A stretch of 58,935 nucleotides of DNA from a virus (taxonomy: Duplodnaviria; Caudoviricetes), in IMG/VR virus record IMGVR_UViG_3300005918_000002, positions 1 through 58,935 of that record. One strand, written 5' to 3'. Below are positions 5,946-25,693 of the stretch, one piece after another. Numbering within the stretch: the first letter of the stretch is position 1; every line of letters begins with the position of its first letter. Both the position numbers and the translations under genes were made by a program. The notes under the pieces were generated by a model. That model did no database searches, was not told the DNA's origin, and worked only from the letters and a program-made list of their open reading frames with translations.

Positions 5946-5960
5946 ACGGAGGAAAGAATC

Positions 5961-6772: not shown

Positions 6773-6810
6773 ATTAATAGTTGGGGACAACAACAATAGG
6801 GGAAAACAAA

Positions 6811-7383: not shown

Positions 7384-7674
7384 ATGAAAAATTTAACAGT
7401 AGTTGGTACTGGCAGTTACGATCATATGCCAGAACCTGCGGTCTATCAAAATTTAACAGGACTAACACTAGAGCAAGCATTAAAAGTTTTGCGAAGTGAA
7501 TCCTGGGGGAACATAGGCGAATTATCCCAAACCGATTTATCAGACGGCACATTTTTAGAGGTTAATTTAACGCCGGCGTCTGATGGTAATAGCAGGTATA
7601 TAAATAGCCAACGGGTTGAACGTTTTAAATATATAGACGGGTTTCCTAAAACTTTACGTAGATATTATATTTGA
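7384..7674 (+). CDS. Hypothetical protein
   Basis: GGAGG RBS; 96 aa. Confidence 0.55.
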   Translation: MKNLTVVGTGSYDHMPEPAVYQNLTGLTLEQALKVLRSESWGNIGELSQTDLSDGTFLEVNLTPASDGNSRYINSQRVERFKYIDGFPKTLRRYYI

Positions 7675-7688
7675 TGGGGAGAAATGAC

Positions 7689-8282
7689 ATGAAGATTAAA
7701 ATTGACATTTTACGTTGGGACACGGGAGAATTAATTTATTCATATGAATGCGAAGAGAACACGATAAAGATAACACTTGAAAGAGGTGTAAATGAAAAGA
7801 TTGATTTTTTCCGGGCGGAACTGAACTGGGCGGAACTGAACGGGGCGAAACTGAACGGGGCGAAACTGAACTGGGCGAAACTGAACGGGGCGGAACTGAA
7901 CGGGGCGAAACTGAACCGGGCGGAACTGAACTGGGCGAAACTGAACGGGGCGGAACTGAACCGGGCGGAACTGAACTGGGCGAAACTGAACGGGGCGGAA
8001 CTGAACTGGGCGGAACTGAACCGGGCGGAACTGAACTGGGCGGAACTGAACTGGGCGGAACTGGATTTTTCTTCATGGGGATTAAGCTGTAACACATTAA
8101 ATACATTGCTTGATCAAAGGCTAATTGTACAACTATTATTTCATGCTGCAAAACCATGTGAAAATAATAAAATAAAAATTGATGCCGATGTAAGGCGATT
8201 ATTCAAGTCGAAAATTTTTATAAAAATATTGCAGAAATTTCACCGCCAAGACGTTAAGGAATATACCGGGAATTTAAAATAA
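7689..8282 (+). CDS. Pentapeptide repeat protein
   Basis: 17 consecutive (W/G/R)A(E/K)LN-type repeats. Confidence 0.9.
   Translation: MKIKIDILRWDTGELIYSYECEENTIKITLERGVNEKIDFFRAELNWAELNGAKLNGAKLNWAKLNGAELNGAKLNRAELNWAKLNGAELNRAELNWAKLNGAELNWAELNRAELNWAELNWAELDFSSWGLSCNTLNTLLDQRLIVQLLFHAAKPCENNKIKIDADVRRLFKSKIFIKILQKFHRQDVKEYTGNLK
7812..8066. repeat. 15-bp tandem repeat, 17 units
   Basis: (t/g/c)GGGCG(g/a)AACTGAAC units encoding the pentapeptides. Confidence 0.95.
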
Positions 8283-8307
8283 CCGTATATTACAGAGGAG
8301 AATTAAA

Positions 8308-8640
8308 ATGAGAGTAATCGAATTAGAAGACATGGGTGACGAGCAGTATAAGGGATTATTGAAAGCTGGCAGAGTGGAGGCCGTCTTTGGATATAGCCAT
8401 AAAAGCGGTAGGATCTTTACACCGACCATTCACTTTCTAAACGTCCATACATTATTTGGATTGCTTGAACCGGCAACTTTAAAAGAGTTTTCGGCAAACA
8501 TTGATGCCGAGGATATGATCATGCAATGCCAGCAGATCCTTAAAACGGATGAGGAGCAGGAAGCGGATGCGGCAGAAGCATTTGAGGATCGCATGGGTGC
8601 AGAGGCAAAGATTCAGGAGGCACATTTTGGAAGCAATTAA
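8308..8640 (+). CDS. Hypothetical protein
   Basis: GAGGAG RBS; acidic C-terminus. Confidence 0.55.
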   Translation: MRVIELEDMGDEQYKGLLKAGRVEAVFGYSHKSGRIFTPTIHFLNVHTLFGLLEPATLKEFSANIDAEDMIMQCQQILKTDEEQEADAAEAFEDRMGAEAKIQEAHFGSN

Positions 8641-9056
8641 ATTCCAGATAATTTCAGCCATGATCGTAGAAAACGATAAAACCCTGATAGTTGTTAAGAT
8701 AAGAATAGGATCAGGCCTTTTAAAGGCGTCCGTTAGGTGTAGTAGCAAGAACCCCTTTTTTACTATCCATAAAATCCATGAGAACAAAACAGGCATTTCG
8801 TGGAAACTGCTTCAACGTTTTAATGAGATACCAGAATCAGAAATTATTGAAAAAGTTTTTGATTTCATGGTTGAACGCGACCGGATTAAAAATTATTATG
8901 TGTCTCATTATAAAACCCGAAAAGTAGGATTAAATAAACCCACCTCCTAGCACTCCGCAAAATCTCCGGTACTAACATAGGCCGGAGATTCCCCCGGTAA
9001 GCTGGTGGATATTTAAAAAAGAGAGGATGTACGGTATGAATATAAAAGGGGATATT

Positions 9057-9911
9057 ATGAAAGGTGTTAAAGTTCTTGAAATAGCACCAAGGGGAGAAGT
9101 CGGCGGCGTTATAAGTGAAGCGCCTTTTGAGAATTTTAGAACCTCATTTGCGTGTGGAATGAAAGTTGAATTACCAGAAAATTCAGACTGGCAAGCGATC
9201 AGGGAAGAATTGTTAAACGATAATCAGCAAGCCTTAATGTTCCGGTTTGAATTATTAAAGAATAAATTGAAAGCCGATTACATTCAAAAACAAATGGCCG
9301 GGATTAGATTCAGGGAAAAAGAAGGCAGGCAATATCCTTCCGTTACTTCTATTCTGGGATTTGATAAAGATTTTTTCATCAGTGATGTTGACCTGACTCA
9401 ATACGGCGCACGGGGTAGCATTGTTCACAAACTGATTGAGCATTATTGTGATAACGGAAAATGGCTTGACCTTAAGGAACTCGTAGGCCTTTACCCGGAT
9501 TTCCGGGAGGATGCCAGTATCATGCACCGGGGAAATTTGGGATTAACCCTTGAAACATTATCATATGAAAAATTCATGGAAGTACACGAAAAGGATTTTG
9601 AATTTGGGATAAAGGAAATTATTATTTTTAATGATAAATATCTTTATTCCGGACGTACTGATATGATAGGTAAATACAAGGGCAAGAAATCAATCATTGA
9701 TTGGAAAAGCGGAGTGGGTGATTTCCCACAACTGGCAGCCTATGCGAAGGGTGACGACATCGAAGGTATCGAACAACTGGTAATTTGTCCTGTTGGCAAA
9801 ACGGATAACAAGAGCGGGGTAATGAAACCCAGGGTGACAATAAATATCGAAAAAGAATTCAACACATTCTTAAAAGCAAGGGCAAAATTTGCCGAAAGAT
9901 TTGGAATTTAA
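9057..9911 (+). CDS. PD-(D/E)XK nuclease-like exonuclease (recombination module)
   Basis: YPSVTSIL, RGSIVH, YSGRTD, IIDWKSG and QLAAY motifs. Confidence 0.8.
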   Translation: MKGVKVLEIAPRGEVGGVISEAPFENFRTSFACGMKVELPENSDWQAIREELLNDNQQALMFRFELLKNKLKADYIQKQMAGIRFREKEGRQYPSVTSILGFDKDFFISDVDLTQYGARGSIVHKLIEHYCDNGKWLDLKELVGLYPDFREDASIMHRGNLGLTLETLSYEKFMEVHEKDFEFGIKEIIIFNDKYLYSGRTDMIGKYKGKKSIIDWKSGVGDFPQLAAYAKGDDIEGIEQLVICPVGKTDNKSGVMKPRVTINIEKEFNTFLKARAKFAERFGI

Positions 9912-9924
9912 ACAGGAGATTAAA

Positions 9925-10230
9925 ATGTCAAAACCAATTAAAAAAATATCAGTAGGAAAAGTTCAAGCCGCCGTCTGGCAGGGAGAATATAATGGGAAAC
10001 CGACATATTCATTCAGTTTCCAGAAAAGTTTTAAAGATAAGGCTTCCGGGGAATGGAAAAATACAACCTTCTTTTCCCCTACAGACCTGAGAGACCTGGC
10101 AATTCTCGTAAACAGTCTATGTGCAAAACAGGTAAAAGAATTTATACCAAATCAGTCAACCGAGACCGCACCACCGCCGCCACCTGTTGAGCAAAGTCAA
10201 ACGCCCGCAGAAGACGATCTACCATTTTAA
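9925..10230 (+). CDS. Single-stranded DNA-binding-like protein
   Basis: Aromatic beta-rich core (KSFKDKASGEWKNTTFF), Pro-rich linker, acidic EDDLPF tail; follows the exonuclease. Confidence 0.65.
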   Translation: MSKPIKKISVGKVQAAVWQGEYNGKPTYSFSFQKSFKDKASGEWKNTTFFSPTDLRDLAILVNSLCAKQVKEFIPNQSTETAPPPPPVEQSQTPAEDDLPF

Positions 10231-10400
10231 AATTTGTAGTATCAAAAATGGTAAACTGTATCGACATGCTGGTGTTACGGCTCCCGGCATTAAAACCGAT
10301 GAAGACGGTCGTATATTAGTAGCTGATTGATAACGGCCTATTCAACGAAATAAGCCAGATTAAGAAAAGCCCTAACCTTTGTACCTAAAAAGGACGAAAG

Positions 10401-10805
10401 ATGCAGAAACCGATCAATCCGCTTGATACGGCCCGACAATACACACACCGTTGCACTGTATGCGGTAATTTCTTCTGCCGGGCTGATAAAAGGCGGGTTT
10501 TATATTGTGGTGATCCTTGCAGAGACGGGGCGGCGGCAGAACGGAAACAACAAAAACTCGAAAAGAAACGTGCCGCCGCCCGTAAAAGATTTGAAAAGTA
10601 TTTCGTCGCTCATCCTGATTACTGGAAACTGATTAAGGTACTTGCGAAATGGCGACTTGTGGAACATGGCTCATATTCCATCCGGGATATTTTCGGAGTT
10701 ATGCGACACGAATACAATGATCAGATTAGTAATAACTGGTCTAAGTTTTATAAGGAAAAACTTGATTATGAATTTAACAAGGGGAGTGAATCATGCGAGA
10801 AATAA
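10401..10805 (+). CDS. Zinc-finger-containing hypothetical protein
   Basis: CTVC...YCGDPC. Confidence 0.5.
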   Translation: MQKPINPLDTARQYTHRCTVCGNFFCRADKRRVLYCGDPCRDGAAAERKQQKLEKKRAAARKRFEKYFVAHPDYWKLIKVLAKWRLVEHGSYSIRDIFGVMRHEYNDQISNNWSKFYKEKLDYEFNKGSESCEK

Positions 10806-11215
10806 AGTTCAGGGGTAAACGACAAGATAATGGTAAATGGATTTATGGATACTATAGATGTATTCAATGGGAGATCGATAAATATTCTCATGAAATCATT
10901 AACGGAAATAGCTTCTTTAGGGTTGATCCCGAAACAGTAGGACAGTTTACAAATAAAATAGATACACATGAAAAAGATATTTATGAAGGTGATAAGGTTT
11001 CATTTACTGTATTTGACGCTATGGGTAGCGATAATCTATTTGAAGGTATTGTAAAATTTGCAGGCGGACAGTGGCAAATATGGAACAATGCTATAACAGA
11101 ATTTTATGGACCAGATGGAGCGTTTGATTTGAACTGGGTAGTTAGTCAAGATGATGAAATTGAAATTATCGGCAATATCCATGAGAATAAAACTCACGAG
11201 GAGAAAGTATCATGA
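10793..11215 (+). CDS. YopX family protein
   Basis: MREIKFRGK...ETVGQFT...DIYEGD...EIIGNIHEN. Confidence 0.85.
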   Translation: MREIKFRGKRQDNGKWIYGYYRCIQWEIDKYSHEIINGNSFFRVDPETVGQFTNKIDTHEKDIYEGDKVSFTVFDAMGSDNLFEGIVKFAGGQWQIWNNAITEFYGPDGAFDLNWVVSQDDEIEIIGNIHENKTHEEKVS

Positions 11216-11634
11216 TTTATATATGTATAGGCATATTTGTTGTCAGTCTTGTTTTAGGATTTTCGATAATGGCAATATTGGCAAGTGGAAGCATTGCCGA
11301 TAAAGCACAAGAGCTTGGACACGCAAAACATGTCCTTGCTAAAATTCTACGCTGGTACGAATCCAAAGCCCTACGAGATTCATTCCCGAAGGAAGAAGCG
11401 GAAGATATCTTATATCATGTTTGACCACTGCGAAATAATCAATGCCATTTGTCCGTTCTGCGGGATCGCAGAAGGCAAGCACTTTTGTGGAACTATGCGA
11501 AGCGGTTGTACAGACATCGATTACATGATCAAGAATGAAATCGGCTGCCCAAAGATTACCGGGAAATATGGTAAACTGATTAAACATAAAAAAAAAGTTG
11601 TTAACGATGGTGATTTATTTAAAGGGGATTTATA

Positions 11635-11991
11635 ATGCCTGATGTAATAAAAACGTCCGAAGAAATAGACCATAAAATAAAGCAACTCGAATCAGGCCGA
11701 AAGGAATTAAACAACCGTGCAATAGATAAGGCCGAAGCAATGGGGATTTATCGCAAGGAAGTTGCGAAAACTTTAATAGGATTACGTAACGGTAAAACAT
11801 ACGAACTTGACGGCGAATCAATACAAAATCCACCGGCCTCTACGTCTGCATCGATCGCAAGGGGAATTTGTTGGAAGGAAAAGATTGAATCTAACAAGTC
11901 CGAAGGGTTATATAAGATTGCTATTATCGGCATGCAGTCTTTAATGGCCGAGCTGAATGGCAAGCAAAGTATTTTAAGATTTATTGAATAA
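11635..11991 (+). CDS. Hypothetical coiled-coil protein
   Basis: RBS; helical composition. Confidence 0.5.
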   Translation: MPDVIKTSEEIDHKIKQLESGRKELNNRAIDKAEAMGIYRKEVAKTLIGLRNGKTYELDGESIQNPPASTSASIARGICWKEKIESNKSEGLYKIAIIGMQSLMAELNGKQSILRFIE

Positions 11992-11995
11992 TCGC

Positions 11996-12024
11996 TTGAC
12001 ATTGACGAAATGATTTTGTAACTT
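11996..12024 (+). promoter_or_regulatory. Sigma70-like promoter
   Basis: TTGACA-N17-TAACTT. Confidence 0.55.
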
Positions 12025-12030
12025 GTTTTT

Positions 12031-12143
12031 GTACGGCGAATCGCAAGAAGGGAACTTAAAAAATGTATAAATTTCAGGCCATTCAAAATTACTTAAGTTC
12101 CTGCATTTCGTCGTGCGGCTTTCGGTTTTGAGTGGCCTGTTTT
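12031..12143 (+). promoter_or_regulatory. Structured leader / candidate attenuator upstream of the replication genes
   Basis: CAGGCCATTCAAAA/TTTTGAGTGGCCTG stem plus T-run; its loop is complementary to 12031-12059. Confidence 0.5.
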
Positions 12144-12479
12144 AATTTAAGATAGAGGTGATACATGGGAGAAATGGCAGACATGATGATTGACGGAACG
12201 CTATGCGAATATTGTGGCGTATATTTAGAACCGGGTGAAACGGTGTATCAGGAAGGTGATAAGAAAAAATCAAGGATGCCCAAAGATGGTACCGGCTTTG
12301 GATGTCCTGTAATATGTAAGAATTGTCATAAATAATACGGGAAGTGGCCAGTTGTATATTGCTGGAAAAGGTTTTACGGTTACCCCATAGTTAAAGAGGT
12401 AAAGCATGATACCATAATCAAAATCGTTTTTAAGTTGTTATGGTATAAAACAATCATGAAAGTTAAGAAAGGAAACATC

Positions 12480-12785
12480 ATGAAAATTAAAAGACTTATA
12501 ATCGCGATGTTGTGTTTAGTCCTGATAGTCCCCATTGTTGGACAGTCGGTATTAACAATCATATCAGACAAAACAGCACCGAAGAAATTCGAGGTTACGC
12601 TCACGGTAACCTATAATGCTATCACCCTAAAAGATGCAGCCGAAAAGGAATTGCAATTCAGGGAGAAGTACAAAGACGCTTGCAAGGTAGACATTACCCT
12701 TTCTGCTGTTGTTTCCGCTGGTTATATTAGTATAGGTGAGGCTGGTTATATTTATACAGGTGAAACAAATACGATAAGTCATTAA
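12480..12785 (+). CDS. Secreted hypothetical protein
   Basis: Signal-peptide-like MKIKRLIIAMLCLVLIVPIVG-Q. Confidence 0.55.
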   Translation: MKIKRLIIAMLCLVLIVPIVGQSVLTIISDKTAPKKFEVTLTVTYNAITLKDAAEKELQFREKYKDACKVDITLSAVVSAGYISIGEAGYIYTGETNTISH

Positions 12786-12796
12786 TGGAGTAAAGC

Positions 12797-13222
12797 ATGA
12801 ATACAAAAACATTATTTAATTTGTTAAGATCAGATGGGTGCATAGTAGTAAACAAGACATTGGCAAAAAATATAGGTATTAATGCCGCTATTATGTATTC
12901 AGAATTATTAAGTAAGTATTATTATTTTAGCGATAACAATATGCTTACGGAAACGGGAATGTTTTTTAATACGATTGAAGATATAGAAAAAGACACAACA
13001 TTAACAGGTTATCAACAGCGCAAAGCGATTTATAAATTATTCAAATTAGATTTAATAGAAGTTCAGGTTACCGGAATGCCAGCGCGGCGTTATTTTAAGA
13101 TCATGCAGAACATGAAAAATGTGGAAACATTACTCAATCCCAGTTATAAAGAAACTTCACGGCAGGTAGTAAAGAAACTTGACGGTAATAATACTAAGAA
13201 CAATACTAAGGGAAATATATAA
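12797..13222 (+). CDS. Phage replication initiator-like protein (N-terminal winged helix)
   Basis: NKTLAKNIGINAAIMYSEL...FFNTIEDIEKDTTL..QQRKAI..GMPARRYF pattern. Confidence 0.7.
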   Translation: MNTKTLFNLLRSDGCIVVNKTLAKNIGINAAIMYSELLSKYYYFSDNNMLTETGMFFNTIEDIEKDTTLTGYQQRKAIYKLFKLDLIEVQVTGMPARRYFKIMQNMKNVETLLNPSYKETSRQVVKKLDGNNTKNNTKGNI

Positions 13223-13285
13223 ATACTAAGAAACGTATTTATATATTTACGCAAGCGTACAAATAACTAATACAAAAGAGGAAAC

Positions 13286-13576
13286 ATGACAAAAGCAGAA
13301 CAAACCCGACGGGAACAGATGGAGGATATTATTATTCGCCTGTCCGTTCTAACTGAAAAAGAATCCGCCAGACTTTGGGGAATGGCCGGAAAGTTCTGGA
13401 ATGAATACGGGTACGCCGAAACTATGCGGGTGCTGGCTGGAATTTGGCCGGTGAAACCCATTGCATATATTTGTGGAGTATTAAAATCGGAAGAACTGAA
13501 AACAGTTGACCTGTCAACCATGCAGCTCCCGCAAGAGGTGTATGATAATCTTGGTGGGTTTGGAGGTGTAAAATAA
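13286..13576 (+). CDS. Hypothetical protein (possible replication accessory)
   Basis: GAGG RBS; KPIAYICGVLK motif. Confidence 0.45.
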   Translation: MTKAEQTRREQMEDIIIRLSVLTEKESARLWGMAGKFWNEYGYAETMRVLAGIWPVKPIAYICGVLKSEELKTVDLSTMQLPQEVYDNLGGFGGVK

Positions 13577-13578
13577 TG

Positions 13579-13642
13579 CACTAACGTTGTAGATATAATT
13601 GGTGGATGGTTTTCACCATCCATTTCATATCGCTTGTTATGT
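13579..13642. mobile_element. attC-like site A
   Basis: CACTAAC...GATATAA/TT-C-ATATC...GTTATGT around a TGGATGGT/ACCATCCA hairpin; near-identical to site I. Confidence 0.75.
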
Positions 13643-13670
13643 TGCACAATGAAAGAACCGGAGATTATGT

Positions 13671-14486
13671 ATGATTGAAAGTAACGATAAAAGAGATTCT
13701 GTGGGTGGGGGTAGTTCCCTTTCCCCTGCTTGTACTCTTTTGCTCGGCGATTGTTTGGAAGTAATGAAGGATATACCAGACGGATCAATAGATGCGATTA
13801 TAACAGACCCGCCTTATGGAACTACTGCTTGTAAATGGGATAGTATTATTCCCTTAGAACCTATGTGGGGGCAGTTAAAGCGGGTCATCAAGCCGAACGG
13901 TGCTATCGTTATGACAGCAAGCCAGCCGTTCACCACAACCCTGATAGCGTCTAATATGAAGATGTTTAAGTATTGCTGGGTGTGGGATAAGCGAGTAGCA
14001 TCTAATTCTCAGCTTGCTAAGATTCAGCCACTAAAGATTCACGAAGATATTTGTGTTTTTGGTGTCGGCAGAATCACATACAATCCACAAGGTCTTACTG
14101 ATTGCAATATAAGCAAGAGTAATAAGAACAGAAGTAAAGGAGTTGGTCACGTTGGCAGTGAATCAAAAAGGGAAAGTTTTACCCAAACAAAAACAGGCTA
14201 TCCTAAGTCAATCCAAAACTTTAAGCCAAATAATATCGGCAAAATGCACCCAACTCAAAAGCCAGTAGCCCTAATGGAGTATCTAATTAAAACATATACT
14301 AACGAGAATGAAACAGTATTAGATTTTGCAATGGGAAGCGGAACAACTGGCGTAGCGTGTAAGAATCTAAATCGTAATTTCATAGGCATAGAAAAAGAAG
14401 AGAAGTATTTCAACATTTCAAAGGATCGTATTTCCCTAATCCCTAAAGGGGGTGGGAATTGCGATCAAACAGCATTAGCAATATAA
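13671..14486 (+). CDS. DNA N6-adenine/N4-cytosine methyltransferase (beta class)
   Basis: GDCLEVM, DPPY, HPTQKP and LDFAMGSGTT motifs. Confidence 0.93.
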   Translation: MIESNDKRDSVGGGSSLSPACTLLLGDCLEVMKDIPDGSIDAIITDPPYGTTACKWDSIIPLEPMWGQLKRVIKPNGAIVMTASQPFTTTLIASNMKMFKYCWVWDKRVASNSQLAKIQPLKIHEDICVFGVGRITYNPQGLTDCNISKSNKNRSKGVGHVGSESKRESFTQTKTGYPKSIQNFKPNNIGKMHPTQKPVALMEYLIKTYTNENETVLDFAMGSGTTGVACKNLNRNFIGIEKEEKYFNISKDRISLIPKGGGNCDQTALAI

Positions 14487-14538
14487 CCATTTCATAACCT
14501 GCCATGTTTCACCGGTCAGGTTGATGAACAGGTTAGAA
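14481..14538. mobile_element. attC-like site B
   Basis: ATATAAC..TTCAT-AACCTG-CC / GG-T-CAGGTT-G-ATGAA..GTTAGAA; MTase stop codon lies within TAAC. Confidence 0.85.
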
Positions 14539-14589
14539 AAATAATAAAAAAGAATGGTAAATATTAATCACAACAGGTGGAGGGGCAAA

Positions 14590-14874
14590 ATGAAATTCAG
14601 TATGAGAATTGGCGATTTTGAATTGAAATCATGTAATCAATATTTAACATCACTTGGTGAACACACAACAGCAGAAATAGTTCAATGGTCAAAAGATGAG
14701 ACAACGGGGAGGCTTTATTGTTGGACTATTGCATGCTGGCGTGAAGACAAAGAGGGATTTGATTTATATTTTATAGATAGTAGACCGTTTGAATGTGATG
14801 CCGAAACATTTTTTAAATTAGCAAAAACGGGACAAATATTTTTAACGGAATATCTGGAAAAGAAGTCAAGTTGA
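14590..14874 (+). CDS. Hypothetical protein
   Basis: GGAGGGG RBS; flanked by an 18-bp imperfect direct repeat. Confidence 0.55.
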   Translation: MKFSMRIGDFELKSCNQYLTSLGEHTTAEIVQWSKDETTGRLYCWTIACWREDKEGFDLYFIDSRPFECDAETFFKLAKTGQIFLTEYLEKKSS

Positions 14875-15135
14875 CATTAATCATAACAGGTAGGGAGGTG
14901 AGATAATTTGAGCTATATAATAACTGCGGATGTCTATTTAGACGAAGAAGAGAATTCATATGGTGAAATTGTAAAAGTAAATGCACGGATTTTATCTAAA
15001 CAGGGATCTTGTATAACTTTTGATATTGCCGGAGATCATTCGAGAAAACGAAAAAGAACAAAGATGTTGTGTGATACACTTATAAATGCAGGGTTTTATT
15101 CATTTAATATACGGCATTCTTATTAAAGGGCAAAT

Positions 15136-16368
15136 ATGACAACAATTTTTGACAATCCTCCACCCCAAGCAATTGATGCGGAAATGTCCGTGCTTGGATC
15201 AATACTGCTTGACAATAAAGTAATAAATATTGTAAAGCTATTACCAAAGCATTTTTACAGAACTTCGCATCGCCAGATATTTCAAGCTATGTTAAACATG
15301 GATAACCAGCCTATTGATATTATCTCGCTTGAGGAGCAGTTGAAAAAAGAAAAGTTGCTTGAAGAAATTGGCGGTTCATATTATCTAACAGAGCTTGCAG
15401 AATCCGTTCCCTCTGCGGCCAATGTTTATGAACATGTGAAAATCGTAATGGAAAAATATACACTAAGGCAAATAATTGAACTGGCATATAACGCAACTAA
15501 GGAAGCGAACGACCTTAATGAGTCAGGCGCAATAATAGATTCATTCTGTAATAAACTTGTTGAGCTATCAATTGCAGAGGTTAGGTCTGATCACATATCA
15601 GAGGCCTTGCATGAATTTAATGATTATGTAGACAGGAAACAAGCTGGCGAAATTGTAGACGTAAAAGTTCCGTTCATTGATAATTTTGAGGAAGGTGAAG
15701 TTATTGTTTTGGCGGCACGTCCCAGTCACGGTAAAACTTCGCTTGCTACCCAGATACTTTTTGAGTGTAATGTTCCGGCTGGTTTAATATCAATGGAAAG
15801 CACAAGAAAAAAAATAGCCGGTAGGATGTTGGCGCAACTTTCGCGAATTGATTCTAAAAAATTAAGTAGGGGAATGCTTGAGGGTGCAGACGTTGCGAGT
15901 GTAATTCAGGCATCCACCGAATTGGCAGAAGCACCAATATATCTTGATTTTGCATCTGATAAGATTTATGAAGTATTGGCTACTGGTCATAGATGGATAA
16001 AAGAACACAATATAAAATTATTAATCATTGATTATCTTCAGCTGATACGTGGAGGTAAAAGCGAAAGTAAGAATATAGAGATTGAAAATATTTCCAGGTC
16101 TTTGATGAGATTTGCAAAAAGAACCGGTGTACCCTTATTGATTTTATCACAATTAAGCCGGGATGGAAAGGTTAAACCGGGGCTTGAACATTTACGAGGT
16201 TCAGGAGCAATTGAGCAGGATGCCGACAGGGTTATATTTATTCGTCGACTTCACATCGAAAATGTCAGTGAGGTAATAATTGAAACGGCGAAATATAGAG
16301 ATGGTGAAATCGGCGAAATACTATTACATTTTAGGAAGGAAATGATGTTGTTTAATAAAGATTTTTAA
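15136..16368 (+). CDS. dnaB: Replicative DNA helicase DnaB-like
   Basis: PPQAIDAEMSVLGSIL N-terminus, AARPSHGKT, IIDYLQL, LSQLSR and LRGSGAIEQDAD motifs. Confidence 0.95.
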   Translation: MTTIFDNPPPQAIDAEMSVLGSILLDNKVINIVKLLPKHFYRTSHRQIFQAMLNMDNQPIDIISLEEQLKKEKLLEEIGGSYYLTELAESVPSAANVYEHVKIVMEKYTLRQIIELAYNATKEANDLNESGAIIDSFCNKLVELSIAEVRSDHISEALHEFNDYVDRKQAGEIVDVKVPFIDNFEEGEVIVLAARPSHGKTSLATQILFECNVPAGLISMESTRKKIAGRMLAQLSRIDSKKLSRGMLEGADVASVIQASTELAEAPIYLDFASDKIYEVLATGHRWIKEHNIKLLIIDYLQLIRGGKSESKNIEIENISRSLMRFAKRTGVPLLILSQLSRDGKVKPGLEHLRGSGAIEQDADRVIFIRRLHIENVSEVIIETAKYRDGEIGEILLHFRKEMMLFNKDF

Positions 16369-16411
16369 AGTGAAAATAAAACTTGTTTTTTAATAAAACC
16401 TAGGGGTGTAA

Positions 16412-16633
16412 TGATAACGTTCAAAGATAACCTGCCTTGCGGTGGTCGGGCATAATTGAAAGGATTTAATGATATGGATATAGTTGATGCACTTCAAGAG
16501 TATTTAGACAAAACAAATCTTGGGAATAATTTACTTTTAGATGATTTATTGTGTTCATCGAGGGATGTTATCAAAGAGTTGAGGGAGGCGGGGCAAGGTG
16601 AGTTGGGCGGTAATCAAGATGGGGTGGTTATTG
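16412..16633. mobile_element. attC-like site C (long loop, degenerate right arm)
   Basis: Left arm TGATAACGTTCAAAGATAACCTG matches site F from AAC onward; CCTTGC/GCAAGG pairing; right box GTTATTG at 16627. Confidence 0.5.
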
Positions 16634-16785
16634 ATATAAAGACGGCATTTGCTTTAGCGCACCCGAATATGTTTAGACCTGAACCGGTGTATGGTTGCAA
16701 GGCATGTAATCGACAAGTCGTACTTGAGAGTGACGACTATTGCCCAAAGTGTGGTGTAAAAATAACTTGGGTGGGAAAATCTTGA
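16474..16785 (+). CDS. Hypothetical protein with C-terminal zinc ribbon; starts inside the loop of site C
   Basis: CKAC...YCPKCG. Confidence 0.55.
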   Translation: MDIVDALQEYLDKTNLGNNLLLDDLLCSSRDVIKELREAGQGELGGNQDGVVIDIKTAFALAHPNMFRPEPVYGCKACNRQVVLESDDYCPKCGVKITWVGKS

Positions 16786-16789
16786 TTCC

Positions 16790-16865
16790 GAATAACAGTT
16801 ATATTCACCGGCGGAAGGCTGGGACGTGGGCGGAAGGGCCGTCCGTGTACAATATTTGGTTATCT
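16790..16865. mobile_element. attC-like site D
   Basis: GAATAAC..ATATTCACCGGCGG / CCGTCCGTGTA-C-AATAT..GTTATCT. Confidence 0.65.
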
Positions 16866-16902
16866 TTTTCGCCCCTAATCCCTAAGTTAATCAATAAATG
16901 TC

Positions 16903-16931
16903 TTGACATTAACAAATGATATATGTATATT
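16903..16931 (+). promoter_or_regulatory. Sigma70-like promoter
   Basis: TTGACA-N17-TATATT. Confidence 0.7.
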
Positions 16932-16940
16932 AAAATAACG

Positions 16941-17176
16941 AAAAATTGAGGGGAAAACGTAATTGAGATCATTGGGAAATTTGGACGCGCAACTTGTTGA
17001 AAGGTTATAGTAGCGAGTAGCAGCCATGTGCCATAGGCAATCTTGGCCCCGTATGGGTAGCAAATTAACCGGAAGGACAAGCTCTGTGAAGACTGGATAG
17101 CAGCCGACGAACAACTCGGAAATTCCCCAGCGAACGAGCCAACACAAAATGGTACTGAGGACACCCCTCAATTTTT
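16941..17176 (+). ncRNA. Candidate structured ncRNA (~236 nt), family unassigned
   Basis: Begins about 10 nt after the -10 box; perfect 13-bp closing stem AAAAATTGAGGGG/CCCCTCAATTTTT; GC-richer than flanks; no + strand ORF in the ORF track. Confidence 0.55.
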
Positions 17177-17191
17177 ATTAAGGAAAATTAA

Positions 17192-17341
17192 ATGCCAGCA
17201 CCTAAAAAGAAGCATCCAAAACAGCCATTAGGAATTCGCCTTCACCCTTTCATAATTAAGCGGTTAAGAAAAGAGGGTAAATATAATGCACTTATTCAGC
17301 GTTTATTATGTGAATATTTCGGTATAGACCTTGGCGAATAA
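17192..17341 (+). CDS. Ribbon-helix-helix-like small DNA-binding protein, 49 aa (not in ORF track)
   Basis: MPAPKKKHPKQPLGIRLHPFIIKRLRKEG...LCEYFGIDL; paralogous to the ORFs at 19900 and 21591. Confidence 0.6.
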   Translation: MPAPKKKHPKQPLGIRLHPFIIKRLRKEGKYNALIQRLLCEYFGIDLGE

Positions 17342-17487
17342 ATATAACGACCCAAATAACCGGCTTTGCCGGGAAGGGAATTTAAAATGAGTTTATTTGA
17401 CGAGGCTACCGAAAGAATGTTAGACGACGAAGAGAGAGAGAGGATATTGGCGGCGGAGCAAAGTCCGTGTTCATTACCGTGTTCTAC
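17342..17487. mobile_element. attC-like site E (ORF start in loop)
   Basis: ATATAAC..AAT-AACCGG-CTTTGC / GCAAAG-T-CCGTGTT-C-ATT..GTTCTAC. Confidence 0.75.
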
Positions 17488-17695
17488 AGGGGATAGTCGG
17501 GACGGGAAGGGTGGCCTTAAAAATGGTGGGTGGTTTAAGAATGAACGCGAAAGTAAGGTGCCGTGCAGGAATTGCCGTTGTCCACATTGGGGTGACAAAT
17601 ACAATCAAAGTTGTGGTGCGTCTGATATAATAAGTGAAAAATGCGCAATGATTTGTGAGGAATACATACCGAAAAGATTGGTGGGGGATTTTTAA
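17387..17695 (+). CDS. Cys-rich hypothetical protein starting in the loop of site E
   Basis: GGGAAGGG RBS and ATG 17387; reads through the right arm of the site. Confidence 0.55.
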   Translation: MSLFDEATERMLDDEERERILAAEQSPCSLPCSTGDSRDGKGGLKNGGWFKNERESKVPCRNCRCPHWGDKYNQSCGASDIISEKCAMICEEYIPKRLVGDF

Positions 17696-17699
17696 GTGT

Positions 17700-17921
17700 G
17701 TAGAACGTTCAAAGATAACCTGCGAAATGGCGGGGGAAGGAATTGGAAAAGATGGATTTAGATAAAAAATATTATACCAGTGAATACATTGAATGTAATA
17801 TACTTCAACTCGTAAAAATGGAACCAGAGTGGGCGGCTTATAGGATACAAGCAGGAGAGAAAGCAATTGAACAGCTTGAGGGTGAGGCGGGGATTTCGTC
17901 AGGTTCATCTAGTGGTTCTAC
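17700..17921. mobile_element. attC-like site F (ORF start in loop)
   Basis: GTAGAAC..AGAT-AACCTG-CGAAAT / ATTTCG-T-CAGGTT-C-ATCT..GTTCTAC. Confidence 0.85.
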
Positions 17922-18219
17922 AGTGGGGGGCGGTGTGGTGATGGATGGCATTAAAAAATTCATGGGTGGAAGGGCTTGTTTAAAGATTGGCGATGGATCA
18001 ACACTTATCAGTGAAGCCCATTATAAGGACAGTATTGATAATGTCCTCGTATTGACGCAATATCACGAGTGTAGAAAAATAGGGTCAGAGCTAAAAGGTT
18101 CTGCCGGCAACCCTGCTACCAACAACGGCACAGTACTTGAAATAGTATTTACAAACTCCACTTCTGTACAAGTTGTAATAGACGCACTAGTTAAAATAAA
18201 AGCGGCCCTTGGGGAATGA
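17752..18219 (+). CDS. Hypothetical protein starting in the loop of site F
   Basis: ORF reads through the right arm (GISSGSSSGST). Confidence 0.55.
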   Translation: MDLDKKYYTSEYIECNILQLVKMEPEWAAYRIQAGEKAIEQLEGEAGISSGSSSGSTVGGGVVMDGIKKFMGGRACLKIGDGSTLISEAHYKDSIDNVLVLTQYHECRKIGSELKGSAGNPATNNGTVLEIVFTNSTSVQVVIDALVKIKAALGE

Positions 18220-18231
18220 ATTATTTAATGT

Positions 18232-18289
18232 GTAGAACCACTTCATAACCTGCCACGTTTCACCGGTCAGGTTGATGAACATGTTAGAA
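18232..18289. mobile_element. attC-like site G
   Basis: Near-identical to site B; GTAGAAC...GTTAGAA. Confidence 0.85.
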
Positions 18290-18310
18290 AATCGGAGAGG
18301 AGTAATTATT

Positions 18311-18505
18311 ATGAGTTGCTGGACAAAAGAAGAACTGGAAAACATGCTTGAAGATGTTGTTAATGAGTTAGAGTTGTCCGGTTCTATATTAGAAGAACAT
18401 GGGCCATTAGGAACACCGCCAGCTGAATTGGTTAGGCTTGTATTGGATGAGAAGGATAAAATCATATCAGCACAAAAAGCCGGATTAAAAATTATATTTT
18501 CTTAA
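18311..18505 (+). CDS. Hypothetical protein (cassette G-H)
   Basis: GAGGAG RBS and ATG 18311. Confidence 0.55.
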   Translation: MSCWTKEELENMLEDVVNELELSGSILEEHGPLGTPPAELVRLVLDEKDKIISAQKAGLKIIFS

Positions 18506-18506
18506 C

Positions 18507-18730
18507 ATATAACATTGGGCTCACCGATTTAGCGGTGGGGAAAGGATAGAATACTATGAGCGTACCAATTAGACATTTAAAACAAGCTTTGGCAATTATG
18601 GGTGTTTCAACCCCAGAAAGTCTTGAGGAATTTAGACAAGATGAATTAAAATGGATTAACAAGCTTGTTTTTACCGTAGTAATATTTGGGGATGAAGGGG
18701 CAAAATCCGCCGTGCAGCCAGTGGTTAGCC
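18507..18730. mobile_element. attC-like site H (ORF start in loop)
   Basis: ATATAAC..GGCT-CACCGATTTAGC / GCAAAATCCGCCGTG-C-AGCC..GTTAGCC. Confidence 0.65.
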
Positions 18731-18897
18731 AAGACGGAGCGGCGGCAAAGGTTGATATTATTCGTCCACTTATTGATGATACCATGAAATATCACAGAAC
18801 GGCGAACAGTAGAGCGAGTAAATTACTAACTGCATTGAATATTAGTGTTGATGCAGTTAAGGAGATACTTAAAGAGTGGGTTGATCGGAGTCAGTAA
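18556..18897 (+). CDS. Hypothetical protein starting in the loop of site H
   Basis: AAGGA RBS; reads through the right arm (AKSAVQPVVS). Confidence 0.55.
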   Translation: MSVPIRHLKQALAIMGVSTPESLEEFRQDELKWINKLVFTVVIFGDEGAKSAVQPVVSQDGAAAKVDIIRPLIDDTMKYHRTANSRASKLLTALNISVDAVKEILKEWVDRSQ

Positions 18898-19056
18898 GAA
18901 GAGGTAAACCATGAAAAACCTTATAAGAAAAATCGGTGAAACAATAATGTTTATCATTGAGTTTTTAGTAACTCTGTTAGGATATGGCCTGTTTGATTTT
19001 AAAGATGGGTTAGAATCTTATGGTAAACCAAAGTATATTAAAATACGGGGGACGAA

Positions 19057-19545
19057 ATGAAAAGGCAAAATTTATTTAAGGCGGCCATTTGCAGTTTTAT
19101 CCTGGCGGTAATTGCAATCATTCTTTTTTCCGGATGCCGTGACGATACGGCAGTTTGGAAACGTATTGCAGAATTGGAAAAGAAGCAAGTCGCAACGGAG
19201 GCCGCTCTTGACAGTGTGGTTTTCAAGGCGGAATTGAGACGAGAAATAAATACAGTCTGGCTCGGAATCGACGGGCTGGATGAAGAAATTATTGACATTG
19301 AAACCCGGCAAGCGGCAATAATGAACCGTCTTGCAAAGTTGGAAGTTGATACCGGGGGAATTATACTTATTTGGAATGAGAATAAATTCGATCCCCGGCG
19401 GCCAGTATACGGATACCGGATTTATTTAGGAAATCACTTGATCTGGGCAGGTCAGGACACATCCGTAACGCTGGAAAATTTAAGGTATTCGGCGTATAAT
19501 TCTGCCGGGGAATCGTTTGGTTTGGAGAAGGTGAGGATAAAATGA
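19057..19545 (+). CDS. Putative lipoprotein
   Basis: Signal peptide with LFSG-C lipobox; Fn3-like fragments YGYRIY..SAYNSAGES. Confidence 0.6.
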   Translation: MKRQNLFKAAICSFILAVIAIILFSGCRDDTAVWKRIAELEKKQVATEAALDSVVFKAELRREINTVWLGIDGLDEEIIDIETRQAAIMNRLAKLEVDTGGIILIWNENKFDPRRPVYGYRIYLGNHLIWAGQDTSVTLENLRYSAYNSAGESFGLEKVRIK

Positions 19546-19607
19546 ATATTTTTTCACGCCTAACCCCTTGTTTCTGTTGCCCTCTTTGAAAATAGTTGAA
19601 AAAAGAC

Positions 19608-19636
19608 TTGACTTTAATCTAAATGATTAGTATATT
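19608..19636 (+). promoter_or_regulatory. Sigma70-like promoter
   Basis: TTGACT-N17-TATATT; shares AAAAAAGACTTGACTTT context with the 6744 promoter. Confidence 0.7.
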
Positions 19637-19899
19637 TATAGTGTCATGAGAGACCAAACTAAAAAAAACGAGGAAAAGAAAGTGACAGCGATACAACAAG
19701 AATTGAAAAGATATGCAGAGATAAGAGCGCAATTATATCAGATTAAAGGTTTTGGGGGGACATCAATTAACGCTGCTATATCTTATGCCGTTGCTGATAT
19801 GATTAATGAACTCAATAATTTTGCAACCAATAAGGTTGAATATTTAAAAAGCGAAAACGAATATCTTTTAGGGTGTATATCGAAATTAAAGGAAGTAGC

Positions 19900-20268
19900 A
19901 TGAGAGGCGGCAAACGAGAAGGGGCCGGACGCAAGCCCAAGCCCGATAAAAAGAAGCCCGTATCTTTTCGCCTTCATCCTAAACTGATTGAACGGTTGAA
20001 GAGAGAAGAAAACCAAGCAAGTGCAATTGAAAAGGCATTGTGCCGATGGTTCGGTATAGACCTTGATGAGCAAGAGACAGAAAAAGAGGGCAAGGCAATG
20101 AAGATAGTTAGAATTAATGAAATTATTTTAAGGGCCAATACTTATCCAACATATTTTGTAGATTATAAGATAGGTAAGGACTGTTGGAAAAATTATGGTA
20201 GTTCTTGTGTCTATGCGGCTGCATTAGAAATGAAAAAACAAATAAATTCCGGGGAAATAGTACTATGA
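19900..20268 (+). CDS. Ribbon-helix-helix-like DNA-binding protein, apparently fused to a second small domain
   Basis: RGGKREGAGRKP...VSFRLHPKLIERL. Confidence 0.65.
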   Translation: MRGGKREGAGRKPKPDKKKPVSFRLHPKLIERLKREENQASAIEKALCRWFGIDLDEQETEKEGKAMKIVRINEIILRANTYPTYFVDYKIGKDCWKNYGSSCVYAAALEMKKQINSGEIVL

Positions 20269-21590: not shown

Positions 21591-21782
21591 ATGAGGGGCG
21601 GCAAACGACTAGGGGCTGGACGCAAACCGGCCCTTCACAAAAAGCGGATGGTATCTTTTCGACTTCATCCAAAATTGATTGAACGGTTGAAGATGGAAAA
21701 TAATCAGGCCAGTGCAATTGAAAAGGCATTATGCCAATGGTTTAATATAGATCTTCAACAAGGAGACAATGAGCAACTTTGA
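21591..21782 (+). CDS. Ribbon-helix-helix-like DNA-binding protein (paralog of 19900)
   Basis: RGGKRLGAGRKP...VSFRLHPKLIERLK..NQASAIEKALC. Confidence 0.7.
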   Translation: MRGGKRLGAGRKPALHKKRMVSFRLHPKLIERLKMENNQASAIEKALCQWFNIDLQQGDNEQL

Positions 21783-22208: not shown

Positions 22209-22272
22209 GCATAACGTTGGAGATATAATTGGTGGATGGTTTTCACCATCCATTTCATATCGCTTGTTATGT
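22209..22272. mobile_element. attC-like site I
   Basis: GCATAAC...GTTATGT; near-identical to site A. Confidence 0.8.
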
Positions 22273-22309
22273 TTTTCACCCCTATAACCAAAGAATGGAA
22301 AGGATTAGA

Positions 22310-22870
22310 ATGAAGGTGTTAATTGCTTGTGAATATTCCGGTGTAGTGCGTGACGCATTTATTAAGAGAGGCCACGATGCAGTGAGTTGTGACATTTTAC
22401 CAACAGAGAGATCCGGGCCCCATTATATGGGTAATGTTTTACCCCTATTGGGTGAAGGGTGGGATCTTATGATTGCTCATCCACCGTGTACAAGATTATG
22501 TAACTCAGGTGTTTGCTGGCTTGACAAAAGGAACCTTTGGGACGAAATGAGAGAGGGGGCCCGGTTTTTCAAAACTTTACTAAATGCGGACATACCTAGA
22601 ATTGCTATAGAGAATCCTATACCACATGGTTATGCGGTGAGAGAGATTGGTAAAAAATATGATCAGATTATACAGCCTTGGCAATTCGGGCACGGGGAGA
22701 CAAAGGCCACTTGTCTATGGCTAAAGAACTTGCCAAAATTAGAACCAACTAGAATTGCTAAAGGAAGAGAGCAGCGATTGCACATGTTGCCGCCTTCTAA
22801 AGATAGGGCGAAGTTGAGGAGTAAAACGTATTTTGGTATCGCTGACGCAATGGCAATTCAATGGGGTTGA
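22310..22870 (+). CDS. Short phage-type DNA cytosine methyltransferase-like protein
   Basis: VLIACEYSG, SCD, HPPC and IENP motifs (C5-MTase motifs I/IV/VI-like); GIADAMAIQW C-terminus. Confidence 0.8.
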   Translation: MKVLIACEYSGVVRDAFIKRGHDAVSCDILPTERSGPHYMGNVLPLLGEGWDLMIAHPPCTRLCNSGVCWLDKRNLWDEMREGARFFKTLLNADIPRIAIENPIPHGYAVREIGKKYDQIIQPWQFGHGETKATCLWLKNLPKLEPTRIAKGREQRLHMLPPSKDRAKLRSKTYFGIADAMAIQWG

Positions 22871-22888
22871 CCTATACCCTGTGAATAA

Positions 22889-22946
22889 ATATAACGCCCA
22901 TTATCAGCGGCGGGCGTTTATCGTCCGCTGCATAATTTTGTTATAA
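22889..22946. mobile_element. attC-like site J
   Basis: ATATAAC..ATTAT-CAGCGG-CG / CG-T-CCGCTG-C-ATAAT..GTTATAA. Confidence 0.85.
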
Positions 22947-22962
22947 TTGGAGGGAATATAAA

Positions 22963-23148
22963 ATGAATGAATACGATGTAAAAAGATTAGCTTTGATTTT
23001 GGCCATACAAGCAGACATTGAAGGAATGAAAATTGAAAACAAGGTTAGGTTGAGTAACAATCAATCACCAGCATATCCCGATGGTGAATTTATGATGAAA
23101 TCGGAAGAATTAAGAGAACTGGCCTATAAACACAATGAACAATTATAA
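22963..23148 (+). CDS. Hypothetical protein (cassette J-K)
   Basis: GGAGGG RBS; stop codon within the TAAC of site K. Confidence 0.65.
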   Translation: MNEYDVKRLALILAIQADIEGMKIENKVRLSNNQSPAYPDGEFMMKSEELRELAYKHNEQL

Positions 23149-23280: not shown

Positions 23281-24237
23281 TTGAATATGTTAGACTTATT
23301 TTCAGGAATCGGCGGATTTCGATTAGCAGCGCAAAGGGTTTGGGGGGAATCTCTAAACTGTAAATGCATGGTAGAGCTTGACCCGTTCTGTCAAAAGGTA
23401 CTTATGAAAAATTGGCCAGGAGTGACAATACATGACGACATTAAAACATTCAAGGGGAGCGGATGGGGAACAATTGACATTCTTACCGGGGGGTTTCCAT
23501 GCCAACCGTTTAGTGTTGCCGGGAAGCAGGGAGGCCGGGAGGATGACCGTTACCTCTGGCCTGAAATGCTCCGCGTTATTAAAGAAGCAAAGCCCCGTTG
23601 GGTTGTTGGGGAAAATGTTACTGGAATCATCAATCTGGCACTCGACGACGTGCTTACTTCGTTGGAAGGTGAGGGGTACGAGACAGAAACGTTTATTATT
23701 CCAGCTTGCGGTGCGGACGCCAAACACAGAAGGAACCGAGTCTGGATTGTTGCCAACAATGAGGGGTCGTTTGACGGGCAACCTATCCCCAAAGAGGTGT
23801 GGGGACAAATTCAACAACTTAGAATCAGTGTTGAGTCGGCAAATGTGGCCAACCCCAAGTGTAAACGAGCCGGGGTGGAAATACAGGACACCAGTAGACA
23901 AGAATGGAAATGCACCAACCCATCACAATCAAAGATGGTACGACAAGGAAACGGGGCGGTTAATGCAGAAAGGATTGGAGCATGCAGTGAAGATGTGGCC
24001 GACAATGACCGCTTGCGAATGGAAGGGGAGAGGCCCGAACAGCAAACAAAAGGGATTAACGAACGCAATTGGATGTACGGGTGGGAGCCTGAACCCTCAG
24101 TGGGTCGAGTGGCTGATGGGATACCCTCAAGGGTGGACAGACTTAAATCACTCGGAAACTCAATAGTGCCGCAAGTGGCTGAACGAATTTTCTGGGGGTT
24201 GCGCTGTGTAGAAGAGGCATTGTGTACGCAAGGCTAA
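23281..24237 (+). CDS. DNA (cytosine-5)-methyltransferase, large subunit
   Basis: DLFSGIGG, GGFPCQPFS, ENV, HRRNRVW and LGNSIVP motifs. Confidence 0.93.
   Translation: MNMLDLFSGIGGFRLAAQRVWGESLNCKCMVELDPFCQKVLMKNWPGVTIHDDIKTFKGSGWGTIDILTGGFPCQPFSVAGKQGGREDDRYLWPEMLRVIKEAKPRWVVGENVTGIINLALDDVLTSLEGEGYETETFIIPACGADAKHRRNRVWIVANNEGSFDGQPIPKEVWGQIQQLRISVESANVANPKCKRAGVEIQDTSRQEWKCTNPSQSKMVRQGNGAVNAERIGACSEDVADNDRLRMEGERPEQQTKGINERNWMYGWEPEPSVGRVADGIPSRVDRLKSLGNSIVPQVAERIFWGLRCVEEALCTQG
23432..24166 (+). CDS. Nested alternative-frame ORF, putative second C5-MTase subunit (motif IX-like)
   Basis: 244 open codons inside the MTase gene; GGAG upstream; LNPQWVEWLMGYPQGWT C-terminus. Confidence 0.65.
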   Translation: MTTLKHSRGADGEQLTFLPGGFHANRLVLPGSREAGRMTVTSGLKCSALLKKQSPVGLLGKMLLESSIWHSTTCLLRWKVRGTRQKRLLFQLAVRTPNTEGTESGLLPTMRGRLTGNLSPKRCGDKFNNLESVLSRQMWPTPSVNEPGWKYRTPVDKNGNAPTHHNQRWYDKETGRLMQKGLEHAVKMWPTMTACEWKGRGPNSKQKGLTNAIGCTGGSLNPQWVEWLMGYPQGWTDLNHSETQ

Positions 24238-24291
24238 CCACTTCATAACCTGCCGCTGTAGTCCACGGTCAGGTTCATGAACAGGTTAGAC
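24232..24291. mobile_element. attC-like site L
   Basis: GGCTAAC..TTCAT-AACCTG-CCG / CGG-T-CAGGTT-C-ATGAA..GTTAGAC; MTase stop codon within TAAC. Confidence 0.85.
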
Positions 24292-24556
24292 AAAATAAAG
24301 GAGAGTAAATATTTGATAAAGCCACATGTCTTCCGAGTAGTTCACGGCAAGGGTGAATTACTAGAGGGAGGAGAAGTTACCAGGTATCGGGGAATGAATT
24401 TCCATACCTGCAATATAAAAAGTAAAAAGAATATCTGCCAGTGGTGTGGCGAGCTTACGGATAACGAGAGGTTTTGCACAACCGGCCACATGTGGAAACA
24501 TCGGAAAAAGGTGAAACGTTACGCAAAGAACGTAACATAAAAAACGGATTGTTATA

Positions 24557-25045: not shown

Positions 25046-25693
25046 ATGTTAGAATTGAATAAAATTTACAACATGGACAATATGAAAGGTATGGCGCATT
25101 TTTCTGATAACTATTTTGAGTTGGCGATAGTCGACCCGCCGTATGGGATAAATCGAAGTAAAAATTTTGGCATGAAAGAATTTGGATGGGTTCAACACAA
25201 GCGGTCTGAATGGGATTCTGAAAAACCAAAGCCTGAATACTTTAAGGAATTGTTTAGGATTTCGGAAAACCAAATAATATGGGGTGGGAATTATATGGTT
25301 GAACATTTAAAGCCATCAATGGGTTGGGTGTTTTGGGATAAGGGACAGAGAAAGTTTTCTACCAGCGATGGAGAGTTGGCGTATACGAGTTTCAATAAAA
25401 AGTTAAAAGTTTTCAATTTAAGCCGGGCTGGTGCGTTGTCGGATAATGGGGGCAAGCCAATACACGCCACTCAAAAGCCCATAAAGCTCTACAAATGGCT
25501 ACTCCACAACTACGCCAAACAAGGCGACAAGATACTTGACACTCATTCCGGATCAGCCAGTTTAGCAATAGCCTGTGAATGGATGGGATTTGATTATATC
25601 GCATTTGAAACAGATATAGACTATTGGACTGACAGCTTAAAAAGATTAGAACAGGAACGGCAGAAGATGCAACAGATAAAAATGGAGTTATAA
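25046..25693 (+). CDS. DNA N6-adenine/N4-cytosine methyltransferase
   Basis: DPPY, HATQKP and LDTHSGSAS motifs. Confidence 0.9.
   Translation: MLELNKIYNMDNMKGMAHFSDNYFELAIVDPPYGINRSKNFGMKEFGWVQHKRSEWDSEKPKPEYFKELFRISENQIIWGGNYMVEHLKPSMGWVFWDKGQRKFSTSDGELAYTSFNKKLKVFNLSRAGALSDNGGKPIHATQKPIKLYKWLLHNYAKQGDKILDTHSGSASLAIACEWMGFDYIAFETDIDYWTDSLKRLEQERQKMQQIKMEL

Follow-up and report, generated by a model that had tools for sequence, protein, structure and literature searches.

The window analysed here, the whole stretch of 58,935 bp, is a complete virus record bounded by direct terminal repeats of 90 bp. The phage genome has a GC content of 38.6% and carries nearly all of its genes on the + strand, where a simple greedy ORF call places 106 ORFs that make up 90.8% of the sequence. 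We identified genes encoding an O/DnaD-like replication initiator (12797-13222), a DnaB helicase (15136-16368), a terminase, a portal protein and four DNA methyltransferases. The methyltransferase genes (13671-14486, 22229-22870, 23281-24237 and 25046-25693; three of them within 3.5 kb) suggest a heavy investment in anti-restriction. The left end encodes a 1076-aa protein without a PHROG match (519-3749), and an ORF of 1473 aa lies near the right end (52060-56481). No cultured relative of the phage was found by tblastn, in which the best match to DnaB is 36% identical and that to the portal protein 25%. Among 5.8 billion proteins, the nearest DnaB other than that of the phage itself is 49% identical, and none of the rest exceeds 42%; IMG/VR contains no close DnaB relative. 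Four salt-lake metagenome runs, each from a different study, contain contigs identical to the window, and the 18 runs listed, all labelled salt lake metagenome, include no RNA dataset.

Downstream of the DnaB gene there is a non-coding gap of 406 nt (16786-17191), the second largest of the 15 non-coding gaps of at least 120 nt in this genome. The largest (6351-6780; 430 nt, 23.5% GC) is very AT-rich and could be an origin or a regulatory region. A replication origin near 17 kb was considered and rejected, given that the cumulative GC skew rises monotonically and makes no turn there. The 406-nt gap holds, in order, a gene-less junction module, a promoter, one arm of an inverted repeat, a GC-rich interior, the second arm and the ribosome-binding site of a small gene.

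The promoter is of the sigma-70 type and lies on the + strand, with TTGACA (16903-08) and TATATT (16926-31) separated by a 17-nt spacer and 11 of 12 positions matching the consensus. It ranks first among 75 promoter-like sites in the first 20,000 positions. Across the whole genome, sites with at least 11 of 12 matches number five on the + strand and none on the - strand, compared with 1.5 +/- 1.1 (maximum 4) in 40 shuffled sequences. The same two hexamers recur at 28091, 25 nt upstream of a ribosome site and an ATG. Since that second site heads a gene, promoters of this type plausibly work in this phage. The surrounding region (28070-28144) carries tandem strong promoter-like sites (TTGACA-17-GACAAT and TTGACA-17-TATATT) that directly precede a 59-aa ORF and the packaging genes. 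A scan with the promoter pattern matched only the related phage described below and one unrelated phage, in which a short leader follows the promoter; the pattern thus appears to be that of a generic strong promoter. From the usual spacing between a -10 hexamer and the start site, we place the putative transcription start at the A at 16938 (+ strand), 7 nt past the hexamer.

The first gene that this promoter would serve (17192-17341, + strand) encodes a 49-aa protein that resembles ribbon-helix-helix (RHH) proteins, and AAGGA stands seven bases before its ATG. The RHH label is plausible but weak: the best family matches are the antitoxin family PHROG 4692 (E 0.02) and Pfam BrnA_antitoxin (E 0.13; 13.1 bits against a cut-off of 26.1), and the best PDB sequence match is non-significant (E 0.83). 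An AF2 model of the monomer (pLDDT 61.7) places helices at residues 19-28 and 32-42 after an extended N-terminus. The phage has two further paralogues (19900-20085 and 21591-21782), and all three share RLHP..I..L......I...LC..F.IDL. The two longer paralogues have MRGGKR.GAGRKP at the N-terminus, and their DNA is 79% identical over 165 nt. A profile search recovered a handful of metagenomic relatives of 59 aa, among them P0128, which is 67% identical to the 49-aa gene product and is encoded on a 5.5-kb JGI contig (5,485 nt).

Between the promoter and this gene lie the two arms of a perfect inverted repeat, AAAAATTGAGGGG (16941-53, + strand) and CCCCTCAATTTTT (17164-76, + strand). The arms are complementary at 13 of 13 positions without any G-U pair and are separated by 210 nt. 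The 5' arm starts 10 nt past the -10 hexamer, such that a start at 16938 would leave about 3 unpaired nt ahead of the helix, hereafter the clamp. The 3' arm stops about 3-4 nt upstream of the ribosome-binding site AAGGA (17180-84), which is followed by N7 and the ATG. This is the sole perfect inverted repeat of the genome with arms of at least 13 nt, a loop of at least 30 nt and a span of at most 400 nt. Repeats of this kind are not rare by chance genome-wide, with at least one in 20 of 60 simulated genomes (mean 0.53), but are rare within this particular gap of 406 nt (2 of 3000 simulations). It is the position of the repeat, not the repeat alone, that stands out. One other perfect inverted repeat of at least 13 nt within 400 nt, an all-A/T palindrome at 13213-13248, overlaps the 3' end and stop codon of the replication-initiator-like gene (12797-13222). 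A third AATTGAG core follows the first one by 17 nt, at 16961-67, and 13-mers with at most two mismatches to an arm number nine in the phage against 5.3 expected.

In a predicted 245-nt RNA the 5' arm is paired with a probability of 0.85-1.0. The mean clamp probability of the 13 pairs is 0.88-0.98 when the 3' end lies between 17176 and 17240 or at 17341 or 17400, and drops to 0.0-0.53 for 3' ends at 17250-17300, where RHH codons at 17229-51 compete for the 5' arm. A weak local hairpin, UGAGG-ACACC-CCUCA (17156-17170, + strand; five pairs, three of them G-C), competes with the clamp for one and the same 3' strand and is followed by the run TTTTTATT (17172-17179). This hairpin with its U-run is the only terminator-like site between the promoter and the RHH-like gene. 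The 13-bp clamp is followed by the same U-run, although it has 210 nt between its arms. Terminator-like sites are not enriched in positions 1-20000 (16 against 14.8 +/- 4.1 expected).

The interior between the arms (16954-17163, + strand; 210 nt) is non-coding, A-rich and T-poor, with 47.6% GC. From arm to arm (16941-17176) the GC content is 46.6%, which exceeds that of the genome (38.6%), of all non-coding gaps together (36%) and of the flanks (33%). The interior includes two copies of TAGCAGCC (at 17018 and 17098), one CCGGAAGGA (17069-77), a CC-GGAA-GG hairpin and a C/A-rich 3' third. Repeats in 16780-17200 are of 7-9 nt only. We identified no + strand ORF of at least 25 aa within 16920-17191; each + frame contains at least three stops and none has a positive codon score, and a recoded or hidden ORF on this strand was rejected on these grounds. 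Antisense ORFs of 119 and 94 aa have codon scores of 0.06 and 0.02, against an antisense null of 0.083 +/- 0.096 (72 ORFs) and 0.206 +/- 0.083 for real genes (58 genes), and their length follows from the A-rich, T-poor composition of the + strand. Neither has a Pfam or PHROG match, and the 119-aa ORF matches only itself among 5.8 billion proteins. A protein on the - strand is therefore rejected. A sequence-only reading of this locus had proposed a promoter-driven RNA of unknown family on the basis of TTGACA-N17-TATATT, a perfect 13-bp stem, a GC content above that of the flanks, two TAGCAGCC copies with one CCGGAAGGA segment, the absence of a + strand ORF and a small RHH-like gene that follows. 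Each of these features was confirmed in place, the promoter being the best sigma-70 match of the first 20 kb, with the RHH label resting on weak matches. The same reading had named a conserved peptide as the finding that would speak against it, and none was found on either strand.

Further interpretations of the interior were also tried and rejected. The element contains nine GGA trinucleotides, as might be expected of a CsrA sponge, but 52 of 500 shuffled sequences reach nine as well. A reading of CCGGAAGGA and AGCAGCC as parts of an SRP-like RNA meets with the wrong motif spacing and no match to an Rfam SRP model. No extended similarity to the RHH paralogues, as in a decayed copy, was detected.

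The early region that surrounds the locus consists of small orphan genes separated by a repeated intergenic module, in which (A)TAACG, 6-7 nt, ATAACC, a short G+C hairpin, a GGAAGG-type ribosome site and ATG follow one another. Copies lie at 14470-14582, 16400-16476, 16786-16860, 17335-17386, 17690-17755, 18221-18310, 22880-22965 and 24223-24320. A core of 59 nt, 93% identical between two of them (14482-14540 and 18233-18291), comprises an AACCTG/CAGGTT inverted repeat and a further CAGGTT, and a third copy (24235-24294) matches parts of this core at 93-95%. These junction modules may be regulatory sites or recombination linkers that shuffle small genes. The copy at 16786-16860 (+ strand) is degenerate, lies just past the stop of a Zn-ribbon ORF and has no credible gene behind it. 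It carries GGCGGAAGG at 16810 and 16829 and has a folding z of -0.08. All three + strand CGGAAGG sites of the genome (five on both strands) fall in the 406-nt gap.

One strong promoter before a row of small genes with a repeated junction element resembles the arrangement at an integron Pc promoter, and the sequence-only reading had suggested that the promoter could drive the downstream cassettes in this way. We consider that it probably does feed the downstream genes. The likeness to an integron, on the other hand, breaks down at its defining part, because the phage has no integrase: the tyrosine recombinase model PF00589 has no match in the complete phage genome (all 14 control genomes were matched), nor does the serine recombinase model PF00239. 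The modules, as aligned here, also appear to differ from attC recombination sites in that they precede start codons.

Searches for relatives of the element recovered none. By blastn it has no match in 50,697 phage records or in 72,556 plasmids, and the 8-kb neighbourhood gives a single match, a methylase piece covering 2% of the query. In IMG/VR there are no matches to a 27-nt interior stretch or to the pattern TAGCAGCC...CCGGAAGG...TAGCAGCC, and no loci for the RHH alignment or for the Zn-ribbon ORF. The two arms at a distance of 195-225 nt occur nowhere in IMG/VR, twice in 185,579 species genomes and twice in JGI metagenomes, and alignment indicates that all four matches are unrelated to the phage element inside. 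The two genome matches (L005, 7465-7730; L006, 2886-3152) belong to a unit of about 243 bp with inverted repeats of about 45 nt in Lachnospiraceae MAGs, where the interior of one locus matches the reverse strand of the other; the opposite interiors may reflect an inversion or mere contig orientation. The other two (L009, 2100-2350; L010, 5670-5945), from one metagenome, consist of repeated TTAAGAAATTGAGGGGCTGGATTTCTTAG-type hairpin units in both orientations and are a separate repeat family that matched the arm pattern by chance.

The sole related phage (G001, contig L002), whose DnaB is 49% identical, has other genes in place of the element downstream of DnaB. All that it has in common with the locus is a promoter-like match of 47 nt, situated where its contig is cut off, and the two short arm-like matches that it contains both fall within coding sequence. 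Metagenome contigs of the four runs that cover the region, with holes in coverage, are identical to the window, so they offer no variants for testing the pairing. As far as these databases reach, the element is an orphan, and the lineage of its phage is poorly sampled, with a single distant relative.

We tentatively favour, at somewhat under even confidence, an internal sigma-70-type promoter followed by a long untranslated and clamped leader of the RHH-like gene. Transcription would start near 16938, and the first 255 nt or so would be the 5' leader of an mRNA with the RHH-like gene and probably the small early genes behind it. In the cell, 16941-53 would pair with 17164-76, closing the leader with about 3 nt free at the 5' end and running into the U-run just ahead of the ribosome-binding site. 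The paired 5' end could shield the mRNA from 5'-end-dependent decay, and the clamp or the competing local hairpin (17156-70), followed by UUUUUAUU, might stop a part of the transcripts. The leader would thereby dose the RHH-like gene and the downstream message. This proposal builds on observed properties of the locus, namely the promoter match, the repeat and the absence of coding capacity, and on a clamp predicted to be stable. It is favoured by the quality of the promoter, the strand bias, the precise placement of the arms, the predicted clamp and the presence of only a weak terminator before the gene. Against it, a mere leader accounts for neither the length of the GC-rich interior, which is long at 210 nt, nor its composition; part of the interior may be a relic. 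Further points against the leader are that transcription could be ended efficiently by a 13-bp helix that leads directly into UUUUUAUU, leaving an RNA that stands alone, that the folding model favours another partner of the 5' arm for 3' ends at 17250-17300, and that a perfect 13-nt repeat is not improbable genome-wide.

Stem-loops at the 5' end are known to stabilize mRNAs, as in the E. coli ompA 5' UTR and the 5' stabilizer of Bacillus phage SP82. As in these, the helix at our locus lies within a few nt of the 5' end and ahead of the ribosome site, where it is expected to block 5'-end-dependent RNases. Unlike the local hairpins of ompA and SP82, it has the far end of a 236-nt leader as its second strand and runs into a U-tract, and its role is predicted from sequence. 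Attenuators and riboswitch platforms share with the locus a promoter, a long GC-rich leader, alternative pairings, a U-run, a ribosome site and a gene. The alternatives here consist of one 3' strand that pairs either with the distal 16941-53 or with the local 17156-60; as both helices precede the same U-run, there is no clear on/off logic. In contrast to these systems, the leader contains no known aptamer, its 13-bp closing helix is far longer than a ligand-sensitive P1, and a leader peptide with a convincing start is missing. Phage P1 c4 and P4 CI are RNAs of about 70-80 nt that undergo processing by RNase P and base-pair with defined sites downstream. They likewise belong to the leader of an operon, early or immunity, in which small regulatory genes follow, but we found neither such complementarity nor a processing signal in the phage element.

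An alternative that we regard as unlikely is a stand-alone structured or stable ncRNA of about 236-240 nt, with its own promoter, the 13-bp stem and a U-run end, which would act in trans or bind a protein. The promoter lies directly upstream and the stem with UUUUUAUU at the end, the gap is long and GC-rich (second of 15; 46.6% against 36%), no ORF fits either strand, and the whole 245-nt RNA folds at -65.6 kcal/mol (z -1.84), a value that 10 of 200 shuffled sequences equal. This signal is lost once the arms are removed. The 210-nt interior folds at -48.8 kcal/mol (z +0.34; 121 of 200 shuffles fold as well), and 18 local windows of 60 or 100 nt are unremarkable, with a lowest z of -2.13 and most values above zero. 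The clamp is therefore the only thermodynamic signal, and a leader fits better than an ornate RNA. The reverse strand folds with z -0.97.

A search with 4227 Rfam families, a check that the sequence-only reading had proposed, gave no family support: there was no match at the gathering score in the whole window, none even at E<=10 with lax filters in 16700-17400, and none to any riboswitch model. ARAGORN likewise identified no tRNA or tmRNA gene in the window. With no homologue in the phage, plasmid, IMG/VR, genome and metagenome scans there is no covariation to draw on, and the only related phage has other genes after DnaB. Two more specific RNA types were rejected. A retron msr-msd RNA would call for a reverse transcriptase, and PF00078 has no match in the phage; a ToxI-like type III toxin-antitoxin RNA would need tandem repeats of about 36 nt, compared with the 7-9-nt repeats present, and the downstream gene resembles an antitoxin-type RHH protein, not ToxN. 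The element first described from sequence thus stands as to its promoter, stem, GC content and lack of coding capacity, but neither Rfam nor interior folding lends its structured-RNA interpretation a positive result.

Long GC-rich intergenic regions are the class mined in Breaker-type searches for structured ncRNAs (PMC8723152). The locus resembles the DIMPL and Breaker-lab candidates (PMC8723152, PMC11109978) in being an unusually long GC-rich gap in an AT-rich genome. Acceptance of such candidates requires homologues and covariation, and the phage element has neither. On present evidence a new RNA family is neither supported nor excluded. Rather less probable still is the more specific proposal of a new single-member class of phage RNA of about 236 nt, in which a terminal 13-bp helix doubles as the terminator of a transcript from its own promoter and repeated loop motifs, UAGC(A/G) and C-GGAAG-G, bind a protein of the host or of the phage early in the infection of a salt-lake bacterium.

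Just as unlikely, in our view, as the stand-alone ncRNA is the possibility that the interior is a relic of cassette turnover, in which the promoter is real, the interior consists of decayed coding or junction sequence, and the repeat is fortuitous or left over. The region is built of small orphan genes and junction modules, the interior has the same GC content as the coding sequence nearby and no excess of structure, and a chance repeat turns up in a third of simulated genomes. The stretch AAATTAACCGGAAGGA at 17061-77 resembles the module AAATAACCGG...GGAAGGGA at 17353-80. This module-like piece, together with the degenerate, gene-less module in the same gap (16786-16860), keeps the relic interpretation alive. 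Decayed coding sequence, however, is at odds with the missing coding signal and the three or more stops in every frame; no protein or DNA relic was matched, and a leftover repeat would have to fall exactly between the start site and the ribosome site, whereas only 2 of 3000 simulations place one in the gap at all.

RHH proteins act as small repressors and recognize repeated half-sites in the promoters of their own genes. The arms could accordingly be paired operators acting at the DNA level, for instance for the neighbouring RHH-like protein, with autoregulation by roadblock or by a DNA loop, and we rate this as improbable, below the preceding alternatives. Apart from the general behaviour of such repressors, it is consistent with the position of one arm at +3 of the promoter and of the other just before the gene, about 223 bp apart, with the perfect Watson-Crick repeat that contains no G-U pair, and with the third AATTGAG core at 16961-67. 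The RHH assignment itself is weak (Pfam E 0.13; pLDDT 62 with only two helices; no significant PDB match), and the other two RHH paralogues lack comparable upstream sites, the arm-like matches in the phage being nine against 5.3 expected. A mobile or invertible segment, either a MITE-like insertion or an inverton bounded by 13-bp terminal inverted repeats around about 210 bp with a GC content unlike the genome's, is highly improbable and largely refuted: the segment is single-copy in the phage, with no target-site duplication and no direct repeat flanking the arms, the arm pattern has no match in IMG/VR and four internally unrelated ones elsewhere, the phage encodes no serine or tyrosine recombinase (a host enzyme is possible), and both contigs extending across the left arm are oriented as in the reference, the X9 contig alone spanning the whole segment.

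The locus carries a caution, in that a promoter, a terminal stem and a high GC content resemble a structured RNA, yet the interior folds like random sequence. The element is nevertheless a well-delimited candidate. Should the RNA prove to stand alone, a new phage ncRNA would have been identified. If, as in the leader that we tentatively favour, the clamp governs stability or read-through, one internal promoter would dose a block of small early genes in this uncultured phage.
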